This document shows positions 1,731-61,102 of a DNA stretch of 64,000 nt, in pieces. Origin of the DNA: Octopus vulgaris (Eukaryota); contig OX597815.1 of NCBI GenBank assembly GCA_951406725.2, forward strand, positions 177,444,001 to 177,508,000. The letters are read 5' to 3'. A program made the translations under genes and the position numbers. Positions within the stretch are counted from its first letter, which is position 1. Every line of letters begins with the position of its first letter. The notes under the pieces were generated by a model that saw nothing but the letters and a program-made list of their open reading frames with translations, made no database searches and was not told where the DNA came from.

Positions 1731-2029
1731 TTATCGTCACGGTCCTTTGTTTCTTTCTTTGCTGACTTTTTCACTTTCTCTCTTTCTCTCTGTCTGTCTC
1801 TCTATCTCTGTCTCTCTCTATCTCTCTCCCTCTACACACATACATTTATAATCGACTAGTCCCTTCCCCCAAAATTACAGGCCTTGTGCCTATAATGGAA
1901 AGGAATCTTCTTTTTCTTTTTCTTTTTCTCCTTTTTCTTTTACTTTTTCTTCTCTTTTTCTTCTTCTTCTTCTTTTTTCCTCTTCTTCTTCTTTTTCTTC
2001 TTATCATCCCCACCCAGCACAAAGCTATG

Positions 2030-2075
2030 TCTGTGACCGTACAGTTTCAGGATTATTTCCCTTCGTCGGCACAGA
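2030..2075 (-). ncRNA. type I hammerhead ribozyme motif (CCGACGA core variant)
   Basis: UCUGUG-CCGACGA-AGGG(AAAUAA)UCCU-GAAA-CU(GUAC)GG-U-CACAGA. One nt short at the cleavage junction relative to the sister copy. Confidence 0.7.
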
Positions 2076-2390
2076 ATAACTCTTCGGCTGAGATGGCGCT
2101 GCTAAACACCGGTCTAAAAATATATATGATTCTCTAAGTGACTCACATTCACTTATCTAATAAAATAGAAACTTTGTCGTTACTAAATCTCTCAACGGGA
2201 GATATTCAGTAGCAGCACTTTAAAGTAGTGATTTTTTTGCCAAGCAAATGTGGCAGTCCCATTTTGGCGCGAATGCTACTATTGTTTGGTCTCAGGAGAA
2301 TTCGTCTTCAGCTGGCTATACAACATACGATCTGTGTCCTTATATTTTCGAACATGAGCGGTTAGCACCCCCACCCAGAAATATGCAATA

Positions 2391-2437
2391 TCTGTGAATC
2401 GTACTATTTCAGGATTATTTCCCTTCGTCGGCACAGA
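2391..2437 (-). ncRNA. type I hammerhead ribozyme motif (CCGACGA core variant)
   Basis: UCUGUG-CCGACGA-AGGG(AAAUAA)UCCU-GAAA-UA(GUAC)GA-UU-CACAGA. 6-bp helix I, palindromic helix III loop, AUU triplet. Confidence 0.7.
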
Positions 2438-2815
2438 ATAACTCTTCGGCTGAGATGGCGCTGCTAAAAGTAATATATGGCATTATATATCATTGCACTG
2501 TTTTACGATATTGAGTACGGTTTTTTACAACATCATATTGACCCGTGTACATACTCTGCTGTGTAATGTGTTGATTTTTATACAACCACATGGTGAGCTC
2601 AAATATGTTCGCGTTAAAAGATGTAATTTGAAGAAACTTTACGTCTAAATACGTCAAGGTATATATTGTTTTTGGTTGGAGTTAGCGTTTCCCGCCGATA
2701 TAAACATGCACACTTGTATATTAGAAGCGAGTGAGTAGATTTGATTGTATGGATCTGTGGAGTTCTCATCATCTAACGTTCACTCACATCCCACGTTCAA
2801 TACATATGTACTTAC

Positions 2816-2925: not shown

Positions 2926-4427
2926 CTAAAACGTAGAGAAGAAACTCAATTATGTTTAAACTGTTAACCATTTTTTCGCGATCTCCAGGGAAGGACAACA
3001 TCAAAACTAAACCAGTCACTAATATGTGAAGAAAACATCACTTAAAAAGACATATACGTATGTATTTATGCGATTCATTGTGTGAAGCTTGTTAACCTAC
3101 TTCTAGCTATAGCTATCACGTGGCTAACGATATGTGCATTAACATTCTGCTGACCTCACAATATTAGGCACCTGGCAGAACTACGTTCTTAAGTGTTGTT
3201 TCTAAATAGAAATATTACTTAAATAAAATGCAGCTGTTTATAGTTTAAACCATTATGGAATCAAAGAAGGCGAGGAAGTTCACTAAGATTGCTATGGTAA
3301 TGTATTGAGTCACTTAAAAAGAATATAACTTTATTCAAACCACGGAAAGGAGATTACTGTAGCGCGTTCTTATAGAATGAAATACAACTAGTGTTTTGAT
3401 CGAACGTCTCTGAAAACAGCTGGCTTTATACGACTTAAATCGCTTTTACACTATTCTCTGTAATAATATCTTTCTAAGGCAGCTGGTTTCCAAGTAAGGT
3501 TATAAGGTACTTCGTGATATATGGTGTTATTAATGTAATTACATATTTGCGTGACTGTATGGTTAAATAATTTACTTTGCGGCTATGCACTTTCCTTCTA
3601 TCTAATATCCCTGAGGCATTTGAGTGATTTCTCTTTTCTTGAGGCATAAAAAGAGCGATTTCGATAAGGTTATTAAACTTCAATGTGCAACTATGAGACA
3701 GGATGCGAATTATATACGCCTGATTCTATATTGAGAAACAAAATCTTGAATATGAACAAAGATTTGAATAATCTAAAGGTTTAATTGGCCTAATGAATTC
3801 TGCAAAACGTCTATGGAGATGCCAAAGTCAATAATATGGGATAAGAAAAATCAGATTCAACAGATTTTACAGTTCCAGGCATCATGTGAAAGAACAAATA
3901 TAGAACAATTAAGCCAGGCTGTTTGCAAGGAATAATTAAATATGGAGTAGCGTTTTATGTCATGGTTAAGATTTTAGAGTCCAAGAAGAGGAGAAATAAT
4001 TTTCTGTTCAAGCAATAAACTAGTCCAAATGTTTGCCAAAGAGTTTTAAAGATGCTTTAAGCGTTTATTACAGTGTATAAATTTGCAAGATGTAGGCTTA
4101 AACTATATAAGCAGGTTACCAATGTATTGTGAAAATCTAGGATCTTAATCCAATACTTGACATATCATAACATCTTGATAAAGCGTTATACGTAATCAGC
4201 AAACTTTATTAAGACTTCAAAGAATCATTGACCGAACATTGATTACGTGTATATAAATTTACTTTATAAAATCTAATCAAACCCATGTCTATTTGGAGGA
4301 AACGCCTGGTAATTGCTAAACGATAGCCTAGAAGCAATAATTAACTTTGGATAATTGTGCGTAAAGTTAGCATAAGGACAATCAATGTAGCGTTTAAATA
4401 TACTCCTCATAAAGCTATGTCTATCTA

Positions 4428-5199: not shown

Positions 5200-7165
5200 G
5201 TTTCTTTATGAGCCACACAGAGCTGCACACATACGGGACAGATTACAAAGTAGCGCTTTTCTTTTTTGGGAAAAAAAAAGAAGTGGGGTAGGTTTTCGAT
5301 CAAAAGGGATCGTAAAAGGGGAAGAAGAAAAAAAAGAAAAAAGGAAAAGAAACAAAAGAAAAGAAAAAAGAAAAAAAGGAAAAAAGGGGAAAAACGATGA
5401 ATAGGGATCGTGTATCACAGTGTCATGATGTAAGGCGTAAAAGGGGAAACAGATAAGGTTTATCCGAGGGAAGAAAAGCCTACGGAAAAGACCACGGTAA
5501 CCTTGGTCAATATTGTTACATGTTACCACATTTGTTTCCAAGTGGGTAACCCTCTGTTTTAAATTTCCGGGTTCATAGGATTATGCTCAAGGTGGCTTCG
5601 TCATTCATACGTGCCATCCTTGCTGCATTCACCCATCTTTTTTAAAAACATTCGCTAGACAAAACATGCTTCTCTACTCTCACTTTCCTTTTCAAGTGAT
5701 ACTTGAAGAAGGTTGAATGAGAGATTGACCAGAGAGGAAAGTGTTTGTCTCCAATCCTTTCAGACGCGTCCACCAGATACATTGTTACGCCATAGCCACA
5801 AGTATGATGAAAATAGCTCTTCCTTCCCGTTTGAAGGAAGGGGGTGTGACAATATTGACCATAGACTCGGCTGATAAACCGACTCGTCCCACCCGTGACA
5901 GCAGTCGTTCGACATATGCCCACAGGTCGGAGATTGTTGGACACTGCACGAGTGCGTGCAAAACGGTTTTGTCGCTCTGACCGCATCTCGGGCAGGTCGG
6001 CCCTGTGTTTCGCGAGCCGTGTCTGTAAAGCTTATCCCGAACGGGTAGCGCTTCTCGGTAGCACTGCCAGGCCAGGGATCTCTGGAAGTTGTCCTGAACA
6101 GGCGGGTCAGGTATTCCTCGTCGACGTCCAGGTTCGCCCCGAGCTCGTCGTCGTACCTCCCCTCCACTATTCCTCTATAGAATGCTTGGGTTGTGTTGGA
6201 GTCACTCAAGGTCGACCCAGGACGGCAGAGTTGCTTGAGAGCAACGCGACACTCGCGGTGCCATTCGCCCTTCCTCGGCCTCTTTTTGATCCACGACTGC
6301 GGTTCAGTCATGGAGACGAGTTGCGGGAGAACGTGCCTCACAAACGGCGACCACACCTGTTTACCGTCGTCTACATAGAGCCGGAGATGTCGCAGTCTTA
6401 GTGCGTGTCTGCACATCATCAACCACGGTATGCCCAGTCCTCCTTTTAACGGGTGTTGACAGCAAATGGATCGCCTGACCATTGGGACGCATCCTTTCCA
6501 CAAGAAGCGAAAGAGAATGCGTTCTAGTTTGGTGATGGTAGGGTCGGGACAAGGCACGACGGTCAGGCGGTAGTAGATGACGGACGCGATGTACGCGTTC
6601 GCCACCTCCGCCCGACCTTTTAGGGACAGTTTCCTCTCGGCCCATTGCCCGGCGAGAGTCACCACCCTACTCGTTATCTCATTCCAGTTCTTCTCCGGAG
6701 GTCCGGAGGTCCGGACCAAGCCAGACCCTGAGCAACTCGACCGGACCGTCGGTTCAGCGTCCGACAACGGAGGCGCTGGTGGACGGCATGGGGTAACTTC
6801 TCCAGGTGCCGAGTCGCAAGCCCACTGATTTTTTCCCCGTTGATTTTCGCTCCTGTCACCGCTTCGTAGTTTTTCAGTGTCTCGCCGACCTGCTCGATGT
6901 GCTCGTGGCTAGACACTATGACGGTGACGTCGTCCGCGTATGCAGACGAACTCGTCCCGCATCCCAGTTCTCGCGGTATGCCCCTCAGAGTTGCCAGCTT
7001 CCGCAATAATGGCTCGAGAGTCAATACGTAGAGAAGCGACGATGTCGAAAGGTCTCGATAGATGTCCATTTACGCGAATTACCGAACGGATGCCTTTCTA
7101 CAAAGCGGCTATCCAGCCGCGGAAGACGGGTCCGAAACCAGCCGCTCTGAGGACATCTTCCAAGT

Positions 7166-13902: not shown

Positions 13903-14224
13903 ATTTCATAGCACATCTAGATTGGTGATCCTCCCCACATTAACATGTTCGTGTTTATATGGCGCTTACGTTATTTTAAGGCCTCCAAGTAATACAGTGA
14001 AAATTTAAAAAACTACACAGAAAAATGCCTGGGATGAGACATTTTTGGTGGGCAAATGAATAATCAAGTGAAAATTTAAGAAATGGATGGGGGAGAATTA
14101 AAATTTTGAAATGCATTTTTTTTTGCAGATTCGGATTCTCCGCCCTCGATATAAAGTGTTCCTGTAAAAGAAAAAAACAAAAAAGTTCCATAGGGGTGGG
14201 TCCATGATCTTTACCTCTGCCCAG

Positions 14225-17030
14225 GCGATCAGCATCTACTTTTGGATGGTGCATGTTCTTACATTTTTCTTGTCTTCCTGTCCAGGCATTGGAGCTCTGT
14301 AAAATTCCATTTAATAATGTTAAAACTATATCGAACAACTGGAAGTGCCAGGCTTCGATGCGAGTTTTAGAGTTGAGTTCAGTATTGAGTATGAGTCTTA
14401 TTCTCCTGTAATTTTTTTTCCTATTTTTCCTTCATAGTAGCATGTTGTAAACCACCCCCCTTCGATTATCCCCAGGTATTTGTAATTTTCTTGTTAGTCA
14501 ATCTTTTTGATGGTAGCGTCGGTATCTAATTTAATGGAAGTTATTTGCCTAAGCATGCCTCTTACACATGTTGCTTTAGCACACTTTTCAGGTTCAAAGT
14601 CCATCCCGATGTCATTGCTGAACTCTTTAACAGTTGTTAGCAGCCCAACTAGCACTTTGTCATTTCTAGCAAGCAGCTTCAGGTCGTCCATATAAAAGAG
14701 ATGGTTTATGGTCGTATTGTAAACTTTGAATCCATACTTGGTGTTACACAGTTCGTTTGAGAGTGGGATCAGTGTCATATAAAAGAGTAATGAGGAGAGG
14801 GGGTCACCTTGAAAGATGCCTCGTTTGATGTTAATTTGGCTCATCCCATTACAGTGGTTTAGAAGGTGACGTGTGTTCTACTTGGTCATGCTGCCTTTTA
14901 AAAATTTGGAGATGTCAGGAGGGGGAAAGAGAGAGATCTTATATAGATGAAAGGCCTTGAGTATCCAATTACGTGGGACACTATGAAATGCTTTCCTCCG
15001 GTCTATGCATGCCATACTCAATTTTTTTTAATTTTTGCTCCGGCAAGCCGACTACAGTCGCTTTACTTATGAGTAATTGATCTTTGCACCCATAAGAATT
15101 CCTTTTACACCCTTTCTGAGCTTGTGGAAGAATAGATATCTGTTCAAAGAAAGCGTATATTCTGTCAGTTAACATGGATGTGAGAATCTTGTAGTTCTTT
15201 CGATTGTTTGTTTCTTCAGTTTTTCGTAGTTATCCAGGCCAGTATTTGCTTTGGATTCTGGATGACATCCGTCCGAGAGGCAGCTAAATGCTGGTGTACT
15301 TCTGTCAGACAATTTAGCCAGAAGTTAGGAATTCGGTCAAGTCCTGGAGACTTCCTAAGAACAAATCGCAGCTCTTCTATCCCTATTGCTTGCAATTTCC
15401 GCTCTTCAGCTTCACCTAGTCTCACTTTCTCACGTTCTAGCCAGTCAGCGTCAGCATTATAATCTTTTTTGTTGCTCCATATCTTCTTGCAGAACTCTTC
15501 CATTCCTTGACTCTTAGGTGGTTCCTTTACTTCTATCTTGTGTTTGCCAATTTTCCTGTAAAATTCTTTTGCATCCGTCCTGAATATCTTGTTTTGTCGA
15601 TAAAATTTTATTCTAATGTTAGACCTTCGTTGGGCTTTCAATTGTATTCGTTATTTCAATTGTTCCTTAGTTACAGGGAGGTATATAGAGTCTTTCATTT
15701 TATATTTTTGCTTGTTTTTTTCCATCTCGTTTCGTCTTAACATCTACTCCTCTAGCAAGTTCATCGAGTAATGACATATTCGCCCGCAGAGATTCAATAT
15801 ATTTTTGTATTGTTACTTTCCACTTAGGAGGTCTATTGACAAGGTTGTTGCTTTTATGTGTCGTCCTGATATCTATTTGTGCAGTTACGACTTTAACGGT
15901 GAAATAGATGAGATTATTTAAGGTTGTTAGGTTGTTAGGTCATTTCCCTTATTACTTAAGATCTGTTTAAGACCAATATCATATATCATGATTATGTTGG
16001 GTTTTTTTAAGCTGTTTGAGAACTTTGCCAGTTGTTCGTTATTAATTATATCAGTAAACTCATACTTGCTGAGTTCTCTGATGATATCTTCTTTTGCTTC
16101 TATGATCTTGTCTTCATTATTCACTCCAAATTCCGTTTCACACTTATTCTGATGTTTTTGAGGTAGGTTTCGTTTGTCCTCTTTTCCCGCTTATATGCTT
16201 TTCGCTATTCTTTTCCAGCTTCCTCCTTGGGATGTAATGCTCGTATACTAGGTTCTCTACATGTTACCTCTTTCATCTGTATTTTGGCTGTTTTCATTTG
16301 GTATACCATGAGATATTTGTATCCTAATTTGGCTAATTTCAGTGTCAGTCAAATTTTTATTCTTAATGATGTCTCAACATACATCACTTAGTTTATTTGC
16401 ATCTAAATATGTGTCTACTACATTGTCTAGTAAATTTCTCCATAAAATTTATTATTGTTTGAAATTAGTTGGGCTATATTAAAAGCTTTCAACTCTGTAG
16501 TCCATTTCATGCGTTTTGCTTTAGGTGTTTTTGGTGGTGTTAGCACATGCCTAACGTTAGAGTTATTCTGGATCTTGTTACCTAGTACATTGTTTATAGA
16601 GTTTGTTCCAGCAGCAGACTTTCCGAACTCAGTTTGGTTCCCAACTGAGTAACGCGGCCCTTGTTGACCCGGGCGATGACCGATCCGGCGTGAGTTTTGG
16701 CTTATCATTAAGGCATTGACAGTGACAATAGGAGACGGGTCTGTTTGTTCAGTGTTGGATTTCTGACTTGGCACCTTTTCCTTATTCTTCGAATGGATAT
16801 ATTTATCATATCGTAGGCTGATAGATCGAAAATTGCCTTTATTATTTGTTTTAGTAAAGATATCCATAAAGACACTATATCAGTCGATAGACTAAAAAAG
16901 ACCTTCATAGAGAAAACCATCCATGTTCCCACTGCAGACGTGCCACTCACAGCATTACAAACACGGCTTGTATACCCACCTTCATATTCCATGACTACTA
17001 TTGGGATCGATCAGTTACCAGGCAAGGATT
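14225..17030 (-). mobile_element. R4/Dong-like (RLE-type) non-LTR retrotransposon pseudogene, N-terminus + RT, 3' part missing
   Basis: KSPGLDRIPNFWL, QKGCKRNSYGCKDQLLI, GIFQGDPLSSLLF, HLFYMDDLKL, MHHPKVDADRL. Many stops and frameshifts. Confidence 0.88.
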
Positions 17031-20112: not shown

Positions 20113-20984
20113 TCTTTTCTACTCTAGGCACAAGGCCCGAAATTTTTTGGGGGGGAGGGGCGATTCGCTTAGATCGATACCAGTACGCAAGGGGTACTTA
20201 ATTTATCGACCCCGAAAGGGTGAAACGCAAAGTTGACCTCGGCGGAATTTGAACTCAGAACGTAAAGATAGACGATTTAACGCTTTGCATTTCGCCCGGC
20301 ATGCTAACGTTTCTTATCTCTTTATTGCACACAAGGGGGTAAACATAGAGAGGACAAAGAAGGACAGACGGAGGGATTAAGTCGAATACATCGACCCTAG
20401 TGCGTAAATGGTACTTAATTTATCGACCCCGAAGGGATGAAAGGTAAAGTCGACCTCGGCGGAATGTGAACTCAGAACGTAAAAACAGACGAAATACCTA
20501 TTTCTTTACTACCACAAGGGGCTAAACACAGAGGGGTCAAACAAGGACATACAAGCGGATTAAGTCCATTGCATGGACCCCAGTGCGTAACTGGTACTTA
20601 GTTAATCGACCCCGGACTGATGAAAGGCAAAATCGACCTCGGCGGAATTAGAGCTCAGAGCGTAGCGGCCGACGAGCTACCGCTATGCATTTCGCCCGGC
20701 GCGCTAACGTTTCTGTCAGTTCGCTGCTTTTCTATGATTAAATATATGTTAATTATTTCTTTACTGCCCACAAGGGGCTAAACACAGAGGGGACAAACAA
20801 GGACAGACAAACAGATTAAGTCGATTACATCGACACCAGAGCGTAACTGGTACTTAATTTATCGACCCCGGACGGATGAAAAGCAAAGTCGACCTCGGCG
20901 GAATTTGAACTCAGAACATAACGGCAGACGAAATACCACTATGCATTTCGCCCGGCTCGCTAACGTTTCTGCCAGCTCGCCGCC
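20113..20984 (-). mobile_element. tandem array of four SINE family A bodies
   Basis: Body motif TATCGACCCCG..GGATGAAAGGCAAAGTCGACCTCGGCGGAAT recurs near 20200, 20420, 20605 and 20860. Confidence 0.88.
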
Positions 20985-21239
20985 TTTCTCTGATTAAATA
21001 TATATTAATCCAAGGTTTCATCACACGTGAAGACATGCAAATAAGAGAGAGACCAGGCAAGACGGGAGGCTGTTTTGTATGTAGGCGTACAGGAAATAAA
21101 TAGGTTATAGGTGTGTTCATTTGAAACAGACGAACGAAAGTTCGAAAAGATTCTTTGCTATTTTGATAGATCCGATATATTGGCTTCTAAACACCAAGTC
21201 AATGATGTGCTGATATATCGCATGCGACATGGTTAGAGT

Positions 21240-32259: not shown

Positions 32260-32344
32260 CAGACAAGAAGGTAATACTTGGAACATGGTATAGCCGTGAA
32301 AACAGCATAAATATTGGATATTTTACCGTTATAAAACGAAAAGA

Positions 32345-34995: not shown

Positions 34996-35262
34996 AAGTA
35001 CCAGTTACGCACTGAGGTCGATGTAATCGACATAATCCGTTTGTCTGTCCTTGTTTGTCCCCTCTGTGTTTAGCCCCTTGTGGGTAGTAAAGAAATAGGT
35101 ATTTCGACTGTCATTACGTTCTGTGTTCAAATTTTGCCAAGGTTGACTTTGCCTTTCATCCTTTCGGGGTCGATTAAATAAGTACCAGTTACGCACTGGG
35201 GTCGATCTAATCGACTCCTCCTCCCTCAAAATATCGGGCCTTGAGCCTAGAGTAGAAAAGAA
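34995..35262 (+). mobile_element. SINE family A tandem fragment carrying both tail types
   Basis: ...GTGGGTAGTAAAGAAATA|GGTATTTCG junction, then body ending GGGCCTTGAGCCTAGAGTAGAAAAG. Confidence 0.85.
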
Positions 35263-35352
35263 TATATATATATGTGTGTGTGTGTGCGCGTGCGCGTTAG
35301 GGAAAGTGAAAGAGAGAGAGTGTGTATATGCATGTATTCATTTACGTATGAA

Positions 35353-53117: not shown

Positions 53118-56100
53118 AAAACTTAGAAAACTTAGATATGTTTCGACCAGAGATTGGTCCAGGTCATGTCTAACTTAATAGCACCACCTGATAGGATTAT
53201 TCGAATCCTGTTTAAGTCAAGTTTTGTTCAAGTAGTGAGTTCTTGTTGGGTGAGTTGTATCCAGTTTTGTTCAAGTAGTGAGTTCTTGTTGGGTGAGTTG
53301 TATCCAATTATGGGTGGCTTATCTGGTATTCTTTGAAGGAATCTATCCAGACTCTGTTTGAAGTTGATGGGATCCTTTTCCTCTTTGATCTCCCTCGGGA
53401 CAATGTTAAATAGGGCAGGGCCTGTTGAGGAAAAGAAATTATGTTGCAGTGTACATGTATGTTGTGATCTTGAATTTGGCAGGGGACGTATAGCCCGTGG
53501 TCCAAGTCTCGGATGAACCTTGAAGCTAATGTTTAGGTCGTTTGGGCAAAGTTGGCGGTATATTTTCCACATCGTACAAATGATGTACCGCTCACGGCGA
53601 CGCTGGAGGGAGTAAAGTTTCAAGGCTTTAAGGCGATCCCAATAATCGAGAGCAGCCATGCCTTCAATTTGTTTAGTGAGAGCCCTCTGGGGTGACTCAA
53701 TTCTGGAGATGTTTTGTCTTGTGTGAGGAGACCACAGTGGGCAGCAGTATTCAAGGTGTGGCCGTACAAAGGATGAAAAAAGTGGTATGATGACACCTTG
53801 TTCTCTGGACCGGAAAGTTCTTAAGATCCAGGAACTCATCTTACGAGCTGTATCGACCTTCTTGTTGATGTGTGCACTCCAACTGAGATCGTCATCAACA
53901 ATTACACCCAGGTCTCTGATATTGTTAGAGGCTGTGAGCGGTTCCCCTGAAGGAAGAGAGTATGGTTGTTTTAGTGAGGAATTTCTTCCAAAATGCATCA
54001 GCTCAAATTTTCCCTCATTCAGTTGCATTTTGTTTCTGTCTGCCCATTGACTCACAGCATATAGGTCAGACTGGAGTTGAGTTCGGTCTGCTTCTTCATT
54101 GACGATTTGCTGGAGCTTAGTGTCATCAGCGAATATTTTCACTTTGCAGTGATGTACGACACTGGAAAGGTCGTTTACATAAATTATGAAGAGTAGCGGA
54201 CCCAAAACAGTTCCCTGGGGAACACCGCTGGTGACTTTTGCTGGGTTTGAGTGGACTCCATCAACTACAACATGTTGTGTTCTATTCGCTAGGAAATACT
54301 GAATCCAGTGTAGAACTTTTCCACGGATTCCAACATTTGCCAATTTTGAGAGTAGGATGTTATGGTCTACCCTGTCGAACGCTTTACTGAAGTCAAGGTA
54401 TATGACGTCAGAGTTCGAACCTGTTCCCAAGGCTTTGAGTACATCTTCAATGTGGTGTAAGAGCTGTGTTAGACAGTCCCTGCCACAGCGAAAGTCATGC
54501 TGATTTGAATTTAAGAGTTTGTGGGTCTCCAGGAAGTCAGCTATCCTTGATCTTAACACTCTTTCAAACACTTTAATGATGTGGGAGGTGAGTGAGATTG
54601 GGCGATAGTTGACTGCGAGGGATCTGTTTCCCTGTTTGAAAACCGGGATGACCGACTGGGATAGAAACTTTTTCGGTATATAACCTGCGTCTAACGAGTT
54701 TCTCCAGAGGTTGGTCAGAGGGACTGCAAGTTGATATCTACATTCCTTCAGGAGACTGGCGGGAAATCTATCAGGGCCTACAGCAGAGTAATGTTTGACC
54801 TCATTTATTGCTGCTACGATGTCGGTGGCAGTGAAGGTTATGTCTGCGATTTTGTGTTGGGAGTCAGCTTCGTTCGTTTCCCTCACATCAATATCAGTGG
54901 GAACACTGAAGACAGAGCAATATTGTTTCTGCAGTATTTCTGCCATTTCTTTAGCATCGTGTTGGGGAATGCCGTTTTCATCAATCAATGGCCCAATAGG
55001 TGAGACAGTGGTTCTATGCTTATTTGCATAAGAATAGAACACTTTTGGGTTCTGTTTGATGTTTTTGATTACCAATTGTTCCTCCACAGCTCTTTGATTT
55101 TCAATGGAGGTTTTCATGTTAGTCTGCAGATGAAGTTTTTCCAGCTCTAGTCTTTTCATTGTTGCTGAATGTGGATGTTGCGTGTGGGAATATTTTAATT
55201 GGTTGATTTTTTTGTTGAGTCTTTTGATGCGCCTGATGAGTGTTTTTTTCTTTTTAGGGAGCCGGTTTCTGTTTGTGTTAGTAGATTTCTTGGGAGCGTG
55301 TTTAGAGCATGTGTCGGTGACAATGGTTTCAAAGTGCTGCCACGCGGTCTCAATATGAGGGGAATTGAGAGTAAAAGACCAGTCGATGGAAGACAGATCC
55401 TTTCTGATTGTTCCCCAGTCCGCTTTGTGGAAATTTATGTTGTCAAATGGGTGCCATGGAGTGGGATTGGCTGGTTTGGTTTTTATACGTCGGGAATTAA
55501 GATTGCAGAGTACCATGTCGTGGTCTGAGAGAAGAGTTTTTTCGACTGAAATGCTGTGAACGTAGCTAGAGTGATTGGTCAGTACCAGATCCAAGATCGT
55601 TTTATTCTGTCTCGTTGGTTCAAGCACTAGCTGAGTCAGGAAATACTCATCCATCAGATTAAAGAGCAGTTCTGCTGCTGCCCTATCTGATGTAGAGCAC
55701 TTGCCTAACTTCGGAGTATTTGTAGGCCAGTTCACATGAGGGAGGTTAAAATCACCCATCACTATTATGTTTCCGGAGTGGTACTTCCGAAGGAAGGACT
55801 TGACTTTGCTAAGGCACTCTTCAAAGTACTTTAGAGGTGCCTGGGGAGGCCTGTAAAGACCAACAATGGTTATGTCCTTGGCTTTGTTGTATACTGATAC
55901 CGATTCACAGTAGCCATTGGAAAATGTGTCCTTGGCATCAAGTGAAAAGGAGTCATGGATAAAGATGGCTGTCCCTCCCTTATTTCGGTCTGTGCGATCC
56001 GCACGAACAATGGTGAAATCTTTTATTTTCACCTCTGCGTCCATATGGGTGTTGTTCAGGTGAGTCTCGGTAAGGATAAAGAAAGGGAAGCAATGTGCCA

Positions 56101-56305
56101 TTTCGGCAAGCCAACTCTCTATATATGGGATCTTCCATTTTTGGGCAATAATTGATGGGTTGATGCCACGTACATTTAACAGGAATGTCGAGGTAAGGGA
56201 AGTTGGTAATGGGTGAGTGGTCCTTGTGATTTGCATAGATGGTTGGTGATGGCTCGCTGGATCTCCTGGCTTAGGTCGGCCTTCATATATATCATTACAT
56301 GGATC
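53118..56305 (-). mobile_element. CR1/L2-group LINE, ORF1 absent, inserted in TA-rich DNA
   Basis: Uninterrupted ORF2, 3' UTR hairpin GACCA-ATCTC-TGGTC, (CTAAGTTTT)2 tail. Confidence 0.93.
53228..56236 (-). CDS. LINE ORF2: AP endonuclease + reverse transcriptase (~1000 aa)
   Basis: APE motifs LNVRG, LTETH, YRPP, GDFN, LDLV, SDH. RT motifs YRPISLTS, DFSKAFD, GVPQG, FADD. C-terminal RPHLEYCCPLWSP. The first ~30 aa of the listed 1054-aa ORF are flanking microsatellite. Confidence 0.93.
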   Translation of the reverse strand: MQITRTTHPLPTSLTSTFLLNVRGINPSIIAQKWKIPYIESWLAEMAHCFPFFILTETHLNNTHMDAEVKIKDFTIVRADRTDRNKGGTAIFIHDSFSLDAKDTFSNGYCESVSVYNKAKDITIVGLYRPPQAPLKYFEECLSKVKSFLRKYHSGNIIVMGDFNLPHVNWPTNTPKLGKCSTSDRAAAELLFNLMDEYFLTQLVLEPTRQNKTILDLVLTNHSSYVHSISVEKTLLSDHDMVLCNLNSRRIKTKPANPTPWHPFDNINFHKADWGTIRKDLSSIDWSFTLNSPHIETAWQHFETIVTDTCSKHAPKKSTNTNRNRLPKKKKTLIRRIKRLNKKINQLKYSHTQHPHSATMKRLELEKLHLQTNMKTSIENQRAVEEQLVIKNIKQNPKVFYSYANKHRTTVSPIGPLIDENGIPQHDAKEMAEILQKQYCSVFSVPTDIDVRETNEADSQHKIADITFTATDIVAAINEVKHYSAVGPDRFPASLLKECRYQLAVPLTNLWRNSLDAGYIPKKFLSQSVIPVFKQGNRSLAVNYRPISLTSHIIKVFERVLRSRIADFLETHKLLNSNQHDFRCGRDCLTQLLHHIEDVLKALGTGSNSDVIYLDFSKAFDRVDHNILLSKLANVGIRGKVLHWIQYFLANRTQHVVVDGVHSNPAKVTSGVPQGTVLGPLLFIIYVNDLSSVVHHCKVKIFADDTKLQQIVNEEADRTQLQSDLYAVSQWADRNKMQLNEGKFELMHFGRNSSLKQPYSLPSGEPLTASNNIRDLGVIVDDDLSWSAHINKKVDTARKMSSWILRTFRSREQGVIIPLFSSFVRPHLEYCCPLWSPHTRQNISRIESPQRALTKQIEGMAALDYWDRLKALKLYSLQRRRERYIICTMWKIYRQLCPNDLNISFKVHPRLGPRAIRPLPNSRSQHTCTLQHNFFSSTGPALFNIVPREIKEEKDPINFKQSLDRFLQRIPDKPPIIGYNSPNKNSLLEQNWIQLTQQELTT

Positions 56306-56554
56306 AATATATAAATATATGATATTTATACATATATAAATATATAAATATATAAATATATGATATTTATACATATATATATATACACCCATACAGGCAT
56401 AAATACACTACATTATATTAGATTATTAGATTATAATATATATATATATAATAATGTTTTATAAGCTTAATGAATTGACGAAGGTAAATAATTTAATATT
56501 GGGGCATATAATCCTACCATAGAAAAAGTAGGATTGTCCGTTTGCGTGGGTTAT

Positions 56555-58800: not shown

Positions 58801-59275
58801 AGTGGTACAACAAAGCACCAACATTTACTGAAAATGGCAGTCGATAATTTACGACGCTAGAGTAAAGCTTCACTGCGTATATACTGGCAAAGACGTGTGA
58901 GTGCAACAGACATGACAAATTTTGACTTACCTCCGGGAAGAACATTCGATAAATAGACAACCCAGGATCTGATAATCCAGTACCTCAGTTTCGGACACTT
59001 CAAATACGTTTGTTAACGAAAAATCGATTAGTCTTCATCAGCTGGATTTATCTGGATAATACTTCAAATATTCCTACATCAATGCCAGTATACTCGCCTG
59101 AACGCTTAGCCGTTAAAAGAAACGAGAACAGTGAAAAGGTGTTCAAAGAAAAACAAAATATTGCAATATAAATGGATTACTTTCCAGTAAAATAAAGCAC
59201 AGTAAAGCTTTACTATAGCGTCGTAAATGCATCGACTGCTATTTCCAGGAAACATCGGTGCCTTGTTGTACCACT
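58801..59275 (-). mobile_element. second fold-back element: ~75-90-bp imperfect inverted repeats around a hammerhead
   Basis: GTGGTACAACAAAGCACC..GCAGTCGAT..TTTACGACGCTAGAGTAAAGCTT versus reverse complement of 59200-59275. Confidence 0.75.
58974..59048 (-). ncRNA. type I hammerhead ribozyme motif
   Basis: AAUCCAG-CUGAUGA-A-GAC..GUC-C-GAAA-C(UGAG)G-UA-CUGGAUU. 7-bp helix I. Confidence 0.8.
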
Positions 59276-59331
59276 ACTCTATATTTGTACTTCTACCTTT
59301 GTACCACTACTCTATATTTGTACTTCTACCT
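59266..59331. repeat. perfect 33-bp tandem duplication
   Basis: TTGTACCACTACTCTATATTTGTACTTCTACCT x2. Confidence 0.95.
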
Positions 59332-59392
59332 TGTGGTGCTTGATTTTACAGCAAATTAATACATTTGTATTGCAATATAAATATATATATAT

Positions 59393-59941
59393 AGCAATAA
59401 TAAATCTCTGAACGAGATGTAAACAGTAAGCGCGCTCGACAATGCAACGTATACTAGCCATCTCAATATGGCTAACCACTATAGGTGGGTGTTACTGTAG
59501 CTTTTTAGCCCCAGGAGATCATCGTCTCCAGCTGGCTTTAGACATAATTTCTGTGCCCTTATGATATTTGCAAAGGGAGGTCATCCCCTCTCGTAAACCT
59601 AAGTGATATGCATGGACTGCAGTTTCGAGATTATTGTCTCTTGTCAGCACACGGTAATCACCGGTTTTCGGTGAGGAGAGACCTGTTTGCGAATATCTAT
59701 TTAATGTTTTTCCCAGTAACCACTGTCACTGATTTCGAAACACGGTCTGAAAGCAATAATAAATCTCTGAACGAGATGTAAACAGTAAGCGCTCGACAAC
59801 GTAAAGTATACTAGCCATCTCAATATGGCTAACCACTAGGGGTGGGTGTTACTGTAGCTTTTTAGCCCCAGGAGATCATAGTCTCCAGCTGGCTTTAGAC
59901 ACAATTTCTGTGCCCTTATGATATTTCCAAAGGGAGGTCAT
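59393..59941 (-). mobile_element. retrozyme-like tandem element, 359-bp unit (~1.5 copies)
   Basis: Direct repeats starting 59393 and 59752, central HHR, homologous to 2007-2468. Confidence 0.78.
59610..59652 (-). ncRNA. type I hammerhead motif with G8A core mutation
   Basis: GUGUG-CUGACAA-GAGA(CAAUAA)UCUC-GAAA-C(UGCA)G-UC-CAUGC. Confidence 0.75.
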
Positions 59942-59976
59942 ATATTTGTATATATATATGTATATATATGTATATA

Positions 59977-61102
59977 GGAGTCAGGCGGTAGTGGTTAGTG
60001 GAGCCACCTCTATGAACACACAAATGGTGAGCGGTGTTCCACAGGGCACTGTCTTGGGACCACTGCTTTTTATAGTGGCCCTCTCAGATATGCCCTCAAC
60101 TGCCCGGATAGCCACTCTGGCCAGCTATGCAGACGATACGAAAGTCTCGCAGAAAATACAGAACCCCAGCGATGTTGCACACCTGCAGCAGGAGTTGGAC
60201 TCAATCTACAGATGGGCTGAGGATAATAATATGCAGTTTAATGCTGAAAATGTCCAGGCCCTGCGCTACCAGCATCCAAAACTGAATATTAAACTTACAG
60301 GATACACCGGTCCACAGGGAAATTCAATCCCAGAGCCTAAGTCTGTGAGGGACCTGGGTATCGACATGAGTGATGATGCCTCTTTCCAAGTGCACATTAC
60401 TAGGATGGTAACAAAATGCAGACGACTGGCTGGGTGGATCCTGAGAACATTCAGAACCAGAGATAAGGAAACCATGATGGTCCTCTGGCTGACATTCGTC
60501 CTCAGTCGCCTGGATTACTGCTCACAGCTATGGTCACCCACCAGTATAAAATTAACAGCGGACCTTGAAGCAATCCAGAGAAGATTCACAAAGAAGATCG
60601 TCTCTTTGCGACAGCTCAGTTACTGCGAAAGGATGAAACAGCTAAGACTCTACTCCCTGGAGAGAAGACGGGAGAGGTATGCAGTGATATATGTCTGGAA
60701 GATCCTGGAAGGAATTGTGCCAAATTTTGGCATTGTAAGCTACACCAATGCTAGAACGGGACGACACTGCATAACGCCAAAGATGCCAGCAATGCCATCA
60801 CGCTTCAGGACCGGCTTCTGCAACAGCCTGGGTTTCAAGGGCTCACAGCTTTTTAATATTCTCCCAAAAAGTCTGAGGAACTTGCACAAAGTAGATGTAG
60901 CGGTTTTTAAATCAAAGCTGGACACCTTCCTGTCAAGAGTCACAGATTAACCTACCTCACGACAAGAGGTGCAAATGAGAGTAGCTGTATCAAACTCCAT
61001 TCTTCACCAAGTGCCACATATTAGACGAGGTTCGTCGTAATAACAGTGTAGCACAAAACGACGGTGCATCAGCATGGCTGCAGCTCTGAGCTGAAACTAG
61101 AG

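Follow-up and report, generated by a model that had tools for sequence, protein, structure and literature searches.

The repeat at 59393-59941 of the window (the whole 64,000-nucleotide stretch of Octopus vulgaris DNA analyzed here, positions 177,444,001 to 177,508,000 of contig OX597815.1) contains an apparent hammerhead ribozyme, and raises the question of whether it is a copy of a mobile element with a life cycle of its own or a piece of something larger, and whether its ribozyme could still act. The reading we favor, at a probability of roughly 0.7, is that it is a dead copy of a non-LTR retrozyme, belonging to a subfamily with a U3-A8 core pair and copied by a Penelope-like reverse transcriptase. 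The features at this locus (subfamily A) and at a related one near 2 kb (subfamily B) are collected in Table 1.

Table 1. Positions of the repeat units, their flanks and the ribozyme elements in the window.
Feature	Positions	Strand
Subfamily A locus: 1.53 head-to-tail units of a 359-bp non-coding repeat	59393..59941	minus (inferred RNA sense)
One full unit; left end common to many family contigs (putative 3' end of insertion)	59393..59751	minus
Partial second unit, 190 bp, without ribozyme, running into (TA)n tract; probable 5' truncation	59752..59941	minus
(TA)n tract, left flank (target site)	59375..59392	none
(TA)n tract, right flank; no distinct target-site duplication readable	59940..59976	none
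Short stem-loop adjoining the shared end; candidate priming signal	59404..59418	minus
Hairpin with one compensatory change between subfamilies	59456..59475	minus
Predicted long imperfect rod extending helix I; no covariation support	59560..59697	minus
Type I hammerhead	59609..59653	minus
Helix I	59653-59648 with 59614-59609	minus
Hammerhead core CUGACAA	59647-59641	minus
Core position 3: C here, U in 99-100% of family depth; C3.A8 mismatch	59647	minus
Core position 8: A, the subfamily state	59642	minus
Helix II, GAGA/UCUC round CAAUAA	59640-59627	minus
GAAA	59626-59623	minus
Helix III, C-UGCA-G, with UGCA palindrome	59623-59616	minus
GUC triplet; predicted cut between 59615 and 59614	59617-59615	minus
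Subfamily B locus: about 1.3 units of a 361-362-bp repeat, two hammerheads (cores 2431, 2069)	2001..2468	minus

At the 59-kb locus 59393-59584 and 59752-59941 are copies of one segment, 94.8% identical across 192 nt and spaced by 359, a distance that becomes 357 after a 2-nt gap, which bears out the 359-bp tandem unit proposed in the initial annotation. The resulting layout is 192-167-190 bp, with a single hammerhead. The longest open frame beginning with ATG is 57 aa and GC is 43% (41% for subfamily B), as expected of retrozymes, which have no coding capacity and a GC content below 50%; the head-to-tail units with their type I hammerheads, 359 bp here and 361-362 bp in subfamily B, likewise fall within the 150-450 bp described for the tandem, low-GC units of non-LTR retrozymes (PMC7229834). 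The right (TA)n tract is adjoined by a 5'-truncated fragment of a LINE reverse transcriptase (59978-60950, plus strand), which lies on the opposite strand and shows no link to the element. Perfect tandem duplications of 33 bp and 43 bp are present at 59266-59331 and 53220-53306, respectively.

Three helices surround the ribozyme core and helix I is open-ended, the arrangement that defines a type I hammerhead, and the invariant bases U4, G5, A6, A9, G12, A13, A14, A15.1-U16.1 and C17 are all present in the 59-kb copy. The dimensions (5-6 bp in helix I, 4 bp in helix II, and 1-2 bp in helix III with a palindromic loop) agree with the canonical metazoan type I motif as described in PMC4209133. 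The minimal hammerhead of Penelope-like elements, by contrast, is reported to have a long helix II, an extra base between positions 9 and 10.1 and little or no helix III (PMC4209133); here helix II has 4 bp, the extra base is absent and a C15.2-G16.2 pair carries a tetraloop. In the subfamily B copies helix II is AGGG/UCCU round AAAUAA and the palindrome is GUAC. A relaxed type I descriptor matches twice in the window, at 59647 and 2431 (it misses the copy at 2069), as against a mean of 0.015 matches in 200 block shuffles of the window, none of which had two. Searched with E values up to 10, Rfam recognized no hammerhead at the two loci, and it reported none in the window, which is a matter of the library rather than a mechanistic criterion. 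Searches of metagenome contigs with the family motif and of viral contigs with the ribozyme pattern each returned 0 matches, and 119 loci with a 17-nt pattern were rejected as chance, the best nhmmer matches being short and seed-centred with a top score of 10.7.

The alignment of subfamilies A and B runs the full length of the unit: 215 of 311 aligned bases agree (69%), and the score of 411 compares with a mean of 110 for 500 dinucleotide shuffles, the highest of which reached 186. The stretch between the ribozyme and a shared 51-mer scores 184 by itself (shuffle maximum 135), and each of three sub-regions scored separately lies above all 500 shuffles. The 51-mers that the initial annotation had quoted are located at 2293-2343 and 59512-59562 (blastn with word size 7, E = 5.5e-5). 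Its view that the two loci are homologous, and that they represent divergent subfamilies of one element, is therefore upheld on the very ground where it could have failed, a formal alignment finding similarity far beyond the shuffles. The 2-kb locus is permuted oppositely, its repeated part being the one with the ribozyme and its other half occurring once, and it ends 35 nt past its own cut site rather than at the end shared by subfamily A (see below). Both of its ribozymes have a C3-G8 core pair with U4C (2431-2425 and 2069-2063, minus strand), a substitution with which a viroid hammerhead reportedly retains some activity (PMC3088659), and the copy at 2069 is missing one base at the cut site. 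The two repeats at this locus differ at 8 of 36 positions 3' of the cut and at 2 of 69 on the 5' side (Fisher p = 0.003, for a boundary picked afterwards); with divergence changing at the ribozyme cut, the locus could be a chimera of two different monomers.

Within the window, nhmmer and a covariance model recovered the known pieces only; the next covariance-model match, at 32280-32317, has no core, and weak matches at 3.3, 8.9, 19.5 and 28 kb are within shuffle range. Two short unit-like motifs in the right order at 3345-3431 score 186, also inside the shuffle range (maximum 198). Other repeats are plentiful. A 1059-codon open frame with endonuclease and reverse transcriptase domains (53228-56407, minus) marks a near-intact LINE, the best database relatives of which are only 47% identical, and two broken LINE remnants with reverse transcriptase matches are found at 5760-7069 and 14494-15650 (minus), presumably of L1/Tx1 and R4/Dong type, judging by eye. 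Another abundant repeat, presumably an octopus tRNA-derived SINE, occurs in tandem at 531-897, 20315-21009 and ~35000-35340 with periods of 183-256 bp. A weak NRF domain match at 13979-14431 (minus; E = 0.0006, below the cut-off) is possibly a host exon.

Public contigs bear on how the element inserts. Of 24 listed runs, 20 contain part of the stretch, and contigs were taken from four of the 24, covering three (A, B and C) of the four organism labels A to D, and placed on the permuted unit 59450-59808 at 80% likeness; 3222, 3066, 1839 and 101 contigs per run were aligned. In the public run contigs the family is present under four organism labels. A large set of contigs (61, 67, 52 and 7 per run) ends its match just left of the equivalent of 59393 (before 59751 on the permuted unit), and the sequence beyond this shared end is mixed and AT-rich, with a flank agreement of 0.50-0.55. 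On the RNA strand it is a 3' end, 222 nt downstream of the cut site. Summed depth, which is not a copy number, peaks in the 170 nt after the shared end and falls 56-, 70-, 327- and 142-fold from there to the lowest bin in the ribozyme half; part of the fall could come from subfamilies less than 80% identical in that half, and some depth extends left of the shared end. By analogy with Penelope-type elements, the shared end together with the fall in depth suggests that priming is internal and that copies are truncated at the 5' end. One 225-nt contig, from run X10, spans both ribozyme and head-to-tail junction and reads U3. Joints that appear to go back from 59806 to 59450 reflect the permuted reference and do not count as evidence of circles. 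Among the runs listed as containing the stretch none is labelled RNA; run X10, guessed to be RNA and available as contigs, has a profile like the DNA runs and was counted neither for nor against expression. As to long arrays, the copies observed have 1.5 and 1.3 units, the contigs being too short to show arrays. A third variant, between subfamilies A and B, was seen as loose ends in 56-62 contigs of two runs and 7 of a third, at the equivalents of 59787 and 59503; other loose ends show internal deletions, so that the family has more than two subfamilies.

The shared end is also what makes it conceivable, if unlikely, that the repeat is the pseudo-LTR or start region of an autonomous Penelope-like element, the loci being truncated insertions or local duplications with no life cycle of their own. 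Penelope elements characteristically show a fixed end, insertion at (TA)n and truncation at the 5' side, and animal U3-A8 ribozymes were first seen in association with such elements (PMC4209133). In a preprint (10.64898/2026.07.22.740005) vertebrate retrozymes are connected with Penelope pseudo-LTRs, which also speaks for the reading we favor; the Xenopus retrozymes had 22 Repbase matches, all but one of them (21) Penelope-like termini. Yet both loci, at 69% likeness, keep a 359-362-bp head-to-tail period with no open frame between units; unit sequence continues past the junction in 45-65 contigs per DNA or unlabelled run (59741, 59744); and the ribozyme has the canonical short helix II described above. 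An autonomous Penelope-like element would have an open frame with reverse transcriptase and GIY-YIG domains between its pseudo-LTRs. No such arrangement was found, and the GIY-YIG domain is absent from the 9 window ORFs scanned. By the same token no autonomous partner turned up among these ORFs, which counts against the retrozyme reading.

The depth profile bears in turn on a second alternative, in which the 190-bp ribozyme-free half would be a separate SINE-like element moved by a LINE, and the ribozyme half a rare insert between two of them, of LTR-like or composite nature. The roughly 50-300 times higher depth over the ribozyme-free half speaks for it, the 192-167-190 bp layout resembles direct repeats round a core, and LINE reverse transcriptases do exist in the window. 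The opposite permutation of the 2-kb locus, where it is the ribozyme part that is repeated, does not fit, however; nor does the depth, which falls gradually with no single edge. Nor was any tRNA detected in the window, or a poly(A) or simple-repeat tail belonging to the unit, and we consider this explanation very improbable.

The retrozyme reading still has to account for the core of the 59-kb ribozyme, in which positions 3 and 8 form a C.A mismatch. In the family contigs U stands at core position 3 (59647) in 99.6%, 99.2%, 100% and 100% of depth (26, 31, 15 and 1 contigs, respectively), and position 8 is not among the best 40 of 51 variant positions. It follows that A8 is the subfamily state and that the lesion is at position 3: the core pair is U3-A8 in subfamily A and C3-G8 in subfamily B, and the change of U3 to C in the 59-kb copy is private. 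A Watson-Crick 3-8 pair is accordingly present in the family and in subfamily B, and absent from the 59-kb copy. Natural ribozymes in which this pair has covaried to U-A are on record and are reported active in vitro (PMC3088659), and some 1,300 U3-A8 motifs accompany Penelope-like elements in Schistosoma (PMC4209133); the variant is thus already in print for other organisms. The initial annotation had instead an ancestral CUGACGA core whose G8 was lost in this copy by CpG decay, a version for which the C3-G8 pair of subfamily B and the CpG formed by C7-G8 speak, but which we find scarcely credible, given that in the family contigs of all four runs U3 makes up 99-100% and G8 is not among the best 40 of 51 variants, and which could at most describe a distant origin of the subfamily, in an order not readable from these data. 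Changes of CpG type do occur in the 59-kb copy, at three positions of helix I (59609, 59613, 59649) but not at G8.

The same annotation took this copy to be probably inactive, and here it fares better, on other grounds: with the 3-8 mismatch and only one ribozyme at the locus, the copy is probably dead. Single mismatches of this pair (C3G, G8C) abolished cleavage in a Poseidon ribozyme (PMC11167929), and by analogy C3.A8 would do so here, and a single ribozyme can form no double hammerhead in cis and release no monomer. An active retrozyme copy has been defined as at least two consecutive intact ribozymes per locus (10.64898/2026.07.22.740005). The 59-kb locus has one, mismatched, and the 2-kb locus has two with U4C, one of them missing a cut-site base, which lowers the standing of both as active copies and not their membership in the family.

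Whether the RNA has been under selection for its structure can be judged for the ribozyme and for the rest of the unit separately. Over the three ribozyme copies in the window, 36 of 38 cells are paired and 4 of 13 pairs are changed on both sides. Two of these four fall in helix II, which, as had been pointed out, stays paired in spite of its different sequence, both sides having changed (GAGA/UCUC vs AGGG/UCCU). These counts were matched by 7 of 500 shuffles, which is not a probability, and slid controls fall short of them; drawn from three related sequences, they are suggestive and do not amount to a statistical test. For the other half of the unit 33 pairs were predicted, of which 1 shows covariation and 11 do not hold up between the subfamilies. 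Eighteen family variants affect paired positions of the monomer fold, and 11 of them disrupt the pairing; structural selection on the whole RNA finds no support in these counts. The claim of selection on RNA structure made in the initial annotation thus holds up for the ribozyme and lacks support for the remainder. The monomer of subfamily A folds better than all 100 of its shuffles (z = -4.2), and that of subfamily B, matched by 8 of 100, is not outstanding. A further count of 16 double changes among 52 pairs of a two-sequence fold was discounted, two sequences being unable to test covariation. The arms of the 59404-59418 stem recur in subfamily B, at 2185-2201, round a longer loop.

The family variants, which come from contigs and are therefore unphased, are broadly compatible with a maintained ribozyme. 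Ten of the best 40 of 51 variant positions fall in 59608-59654, and none of the ten, position 3 excepted, alters an invariant core base; this lack of other core variants is insignificant alone, about 1 to 1.5 being expected at the overall rate. Two of the ten lie in loops and one at the end of helix I. Single variants at 59609, 59613, 59637 and 59650 keep a pair or gain one, and those at 59630 and 59649 keep theirs only with the partner variant, whose share was as large in 7 of 8 run comparisons. The variant at 59609 (83-97%) makes helix I longer by a C-G pair, where subfamily B has U-A, and that at 59650 turns G.U into A-U; pair 2.2-1.2 is C-G or U.G in the family and pair 10.4-11.4 is G.U or G-C. 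At pair 2.2-1.2 CpG decay on both stem strands can mimic a C-G to U-A covariation. In one loose end loop 3 is a further palindrome, UAUA.

Folding predictions touch on how two such ribozymes might act together. A self-duplex of the helix III strand is predicted at -11.1 kcal/mol, and the predicted misfold of the monomer pairs the first core bases with the helix III palindrome. As a rough sum, the open dimer comes to -32.3 kcal/mol against -29.4 for two misfolded monomers when the family letters (three in number) are set in, whereas the 59-kb copy itself favors the misfold (-39.6 against -33.7 for the open dimer). Such a self-pairing lock was not accepted as evidence, being a folding prediction that about one palindrome in four would permit.

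In the life cycle that we propose for the retrozyme, intact tandem copies would be transcribed from the minus strand, and two ribozymes would pair via the palindromic helix III, cut after GUC and release 359-nt monomers that may circularize. A Penelope-like protein would nick AT-rich or (TA)n DNA, and reverse transcription would begin internally, the preferred starting point lying beside the small stem-loop, about 222 nt downstream of the cut. Most cDNAs would stop within some 200 nt, short of the ribozyme, and a few, such as the one that gave rise to the 59-kb copy, would pass one unit on a multimeric or circular template. The ribozyme would be under selection in the source elements, and it is there that the C3-G8 and U3-A8 versions would have diverged; the 59-kb copy would have decayed later, its one mismatched ribozyme releasing no monomer.

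A more ambitious account is held tentatively, at somewhat less than even odds. In it the locus belongs to a very abundant retrozyme family that records priming at one internal site, 222 nt from the cut beside a conserved stem-loop, as in Penelope-like elements; with such a site, most insertions would be ribozyme-free, SINE-like stubs, and rare read-throughs would seed new source elements. The 3-8 pair would have been swapped wholesale (C-G vs U-A), U3 weakening the self-pairing lock and tuning cleavage to dimers. PMC7761336 treats the priming of animal retrozymes, and the enzyme responsible for it, as an open question, which becomes testable with a family whose copies share an internal end in AT-rich DNA. 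The core pair has a practical side as well: searches based on CUGANGA, and Rfam, miss subfamily A, so that hammerheads may be undercounted in such genomes.

The element type is already in print, and the locus represents a new family and not a new kind. In the literature covered, mostly open-access papers, no description of this family was found, nor of a fixed internal end in animal retrozymes. Penelope-like elements account for 6.83% of the O. vulgaris annotation (PMC13282606), in whose available text and supplement ribozymes are unmentioned; in the giant squid, 235 type I hammerheads had already been counted (PMC6962438). The closest likeness is to the metazoan non-LTR retrozymes of PMC7229834, among them those of mussels, whose units of 350-390 bp are expressed as circles: a type I hammerhead, a short non-coding head-to-tail repeat, GC below 50% and a monomer predicted to be self-paired are common to both. 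The octopus family differs in its core, with U3-A8 fixed in subfamily A and U4C present in both copies of subfamily B, in its partial tandems and in the preferred internal end with many ribozyme-free stubs, which the available text of PMC7229834 does not describe.

The hammerheads of Penelope-like pseudo-LTRs, including Cercyon of Schistosoma, are also of type I and share the palindromic loop 3 and the U3-A8 pair (PMC4209133), but the octopus ribozyme has a 4-bp helix II, a helix I of up to 6 bp in the family and no extra base after position 9, and no reverse transcriptase ORF is attached to it. In Anolis the Poseidon element PAc cleaves AT-rich target DNA and initiates within a stem-loop located 3' of the hammerhead cut (PMC11167929). 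It resembles our family in its internal insertion end 3' of the cut, near a stem-loop and in AT-rich DNA, as judged here from contig ends; PAc, however, is an autonomous element whose starting point, about 85-92 nt beyond the cut, falls within its ORF, whereas the octopus unit is non-coding and the distance is 222 nt. Naiads, Penelope-like elements of octopuses, share the preference for insertion at (TA)n but, in the accessible text of PMC8557442, are without canonical hammerheads, and an exact search for four 11-nt motifs of the unit found none in the published Naiad/Chlamys/Hydra consensus file. Finally, the satellite hammerheads of newt and axolotl, which act as dimers, have the same one-pair helix III with a palindromic tetraloop and likewise need a double hammerhead, as is predicted here (PMC7229834, PMC6155905); the octopus family differs from them in its invertebrate-type host, in its other core pair and in that no long arrays were seen.
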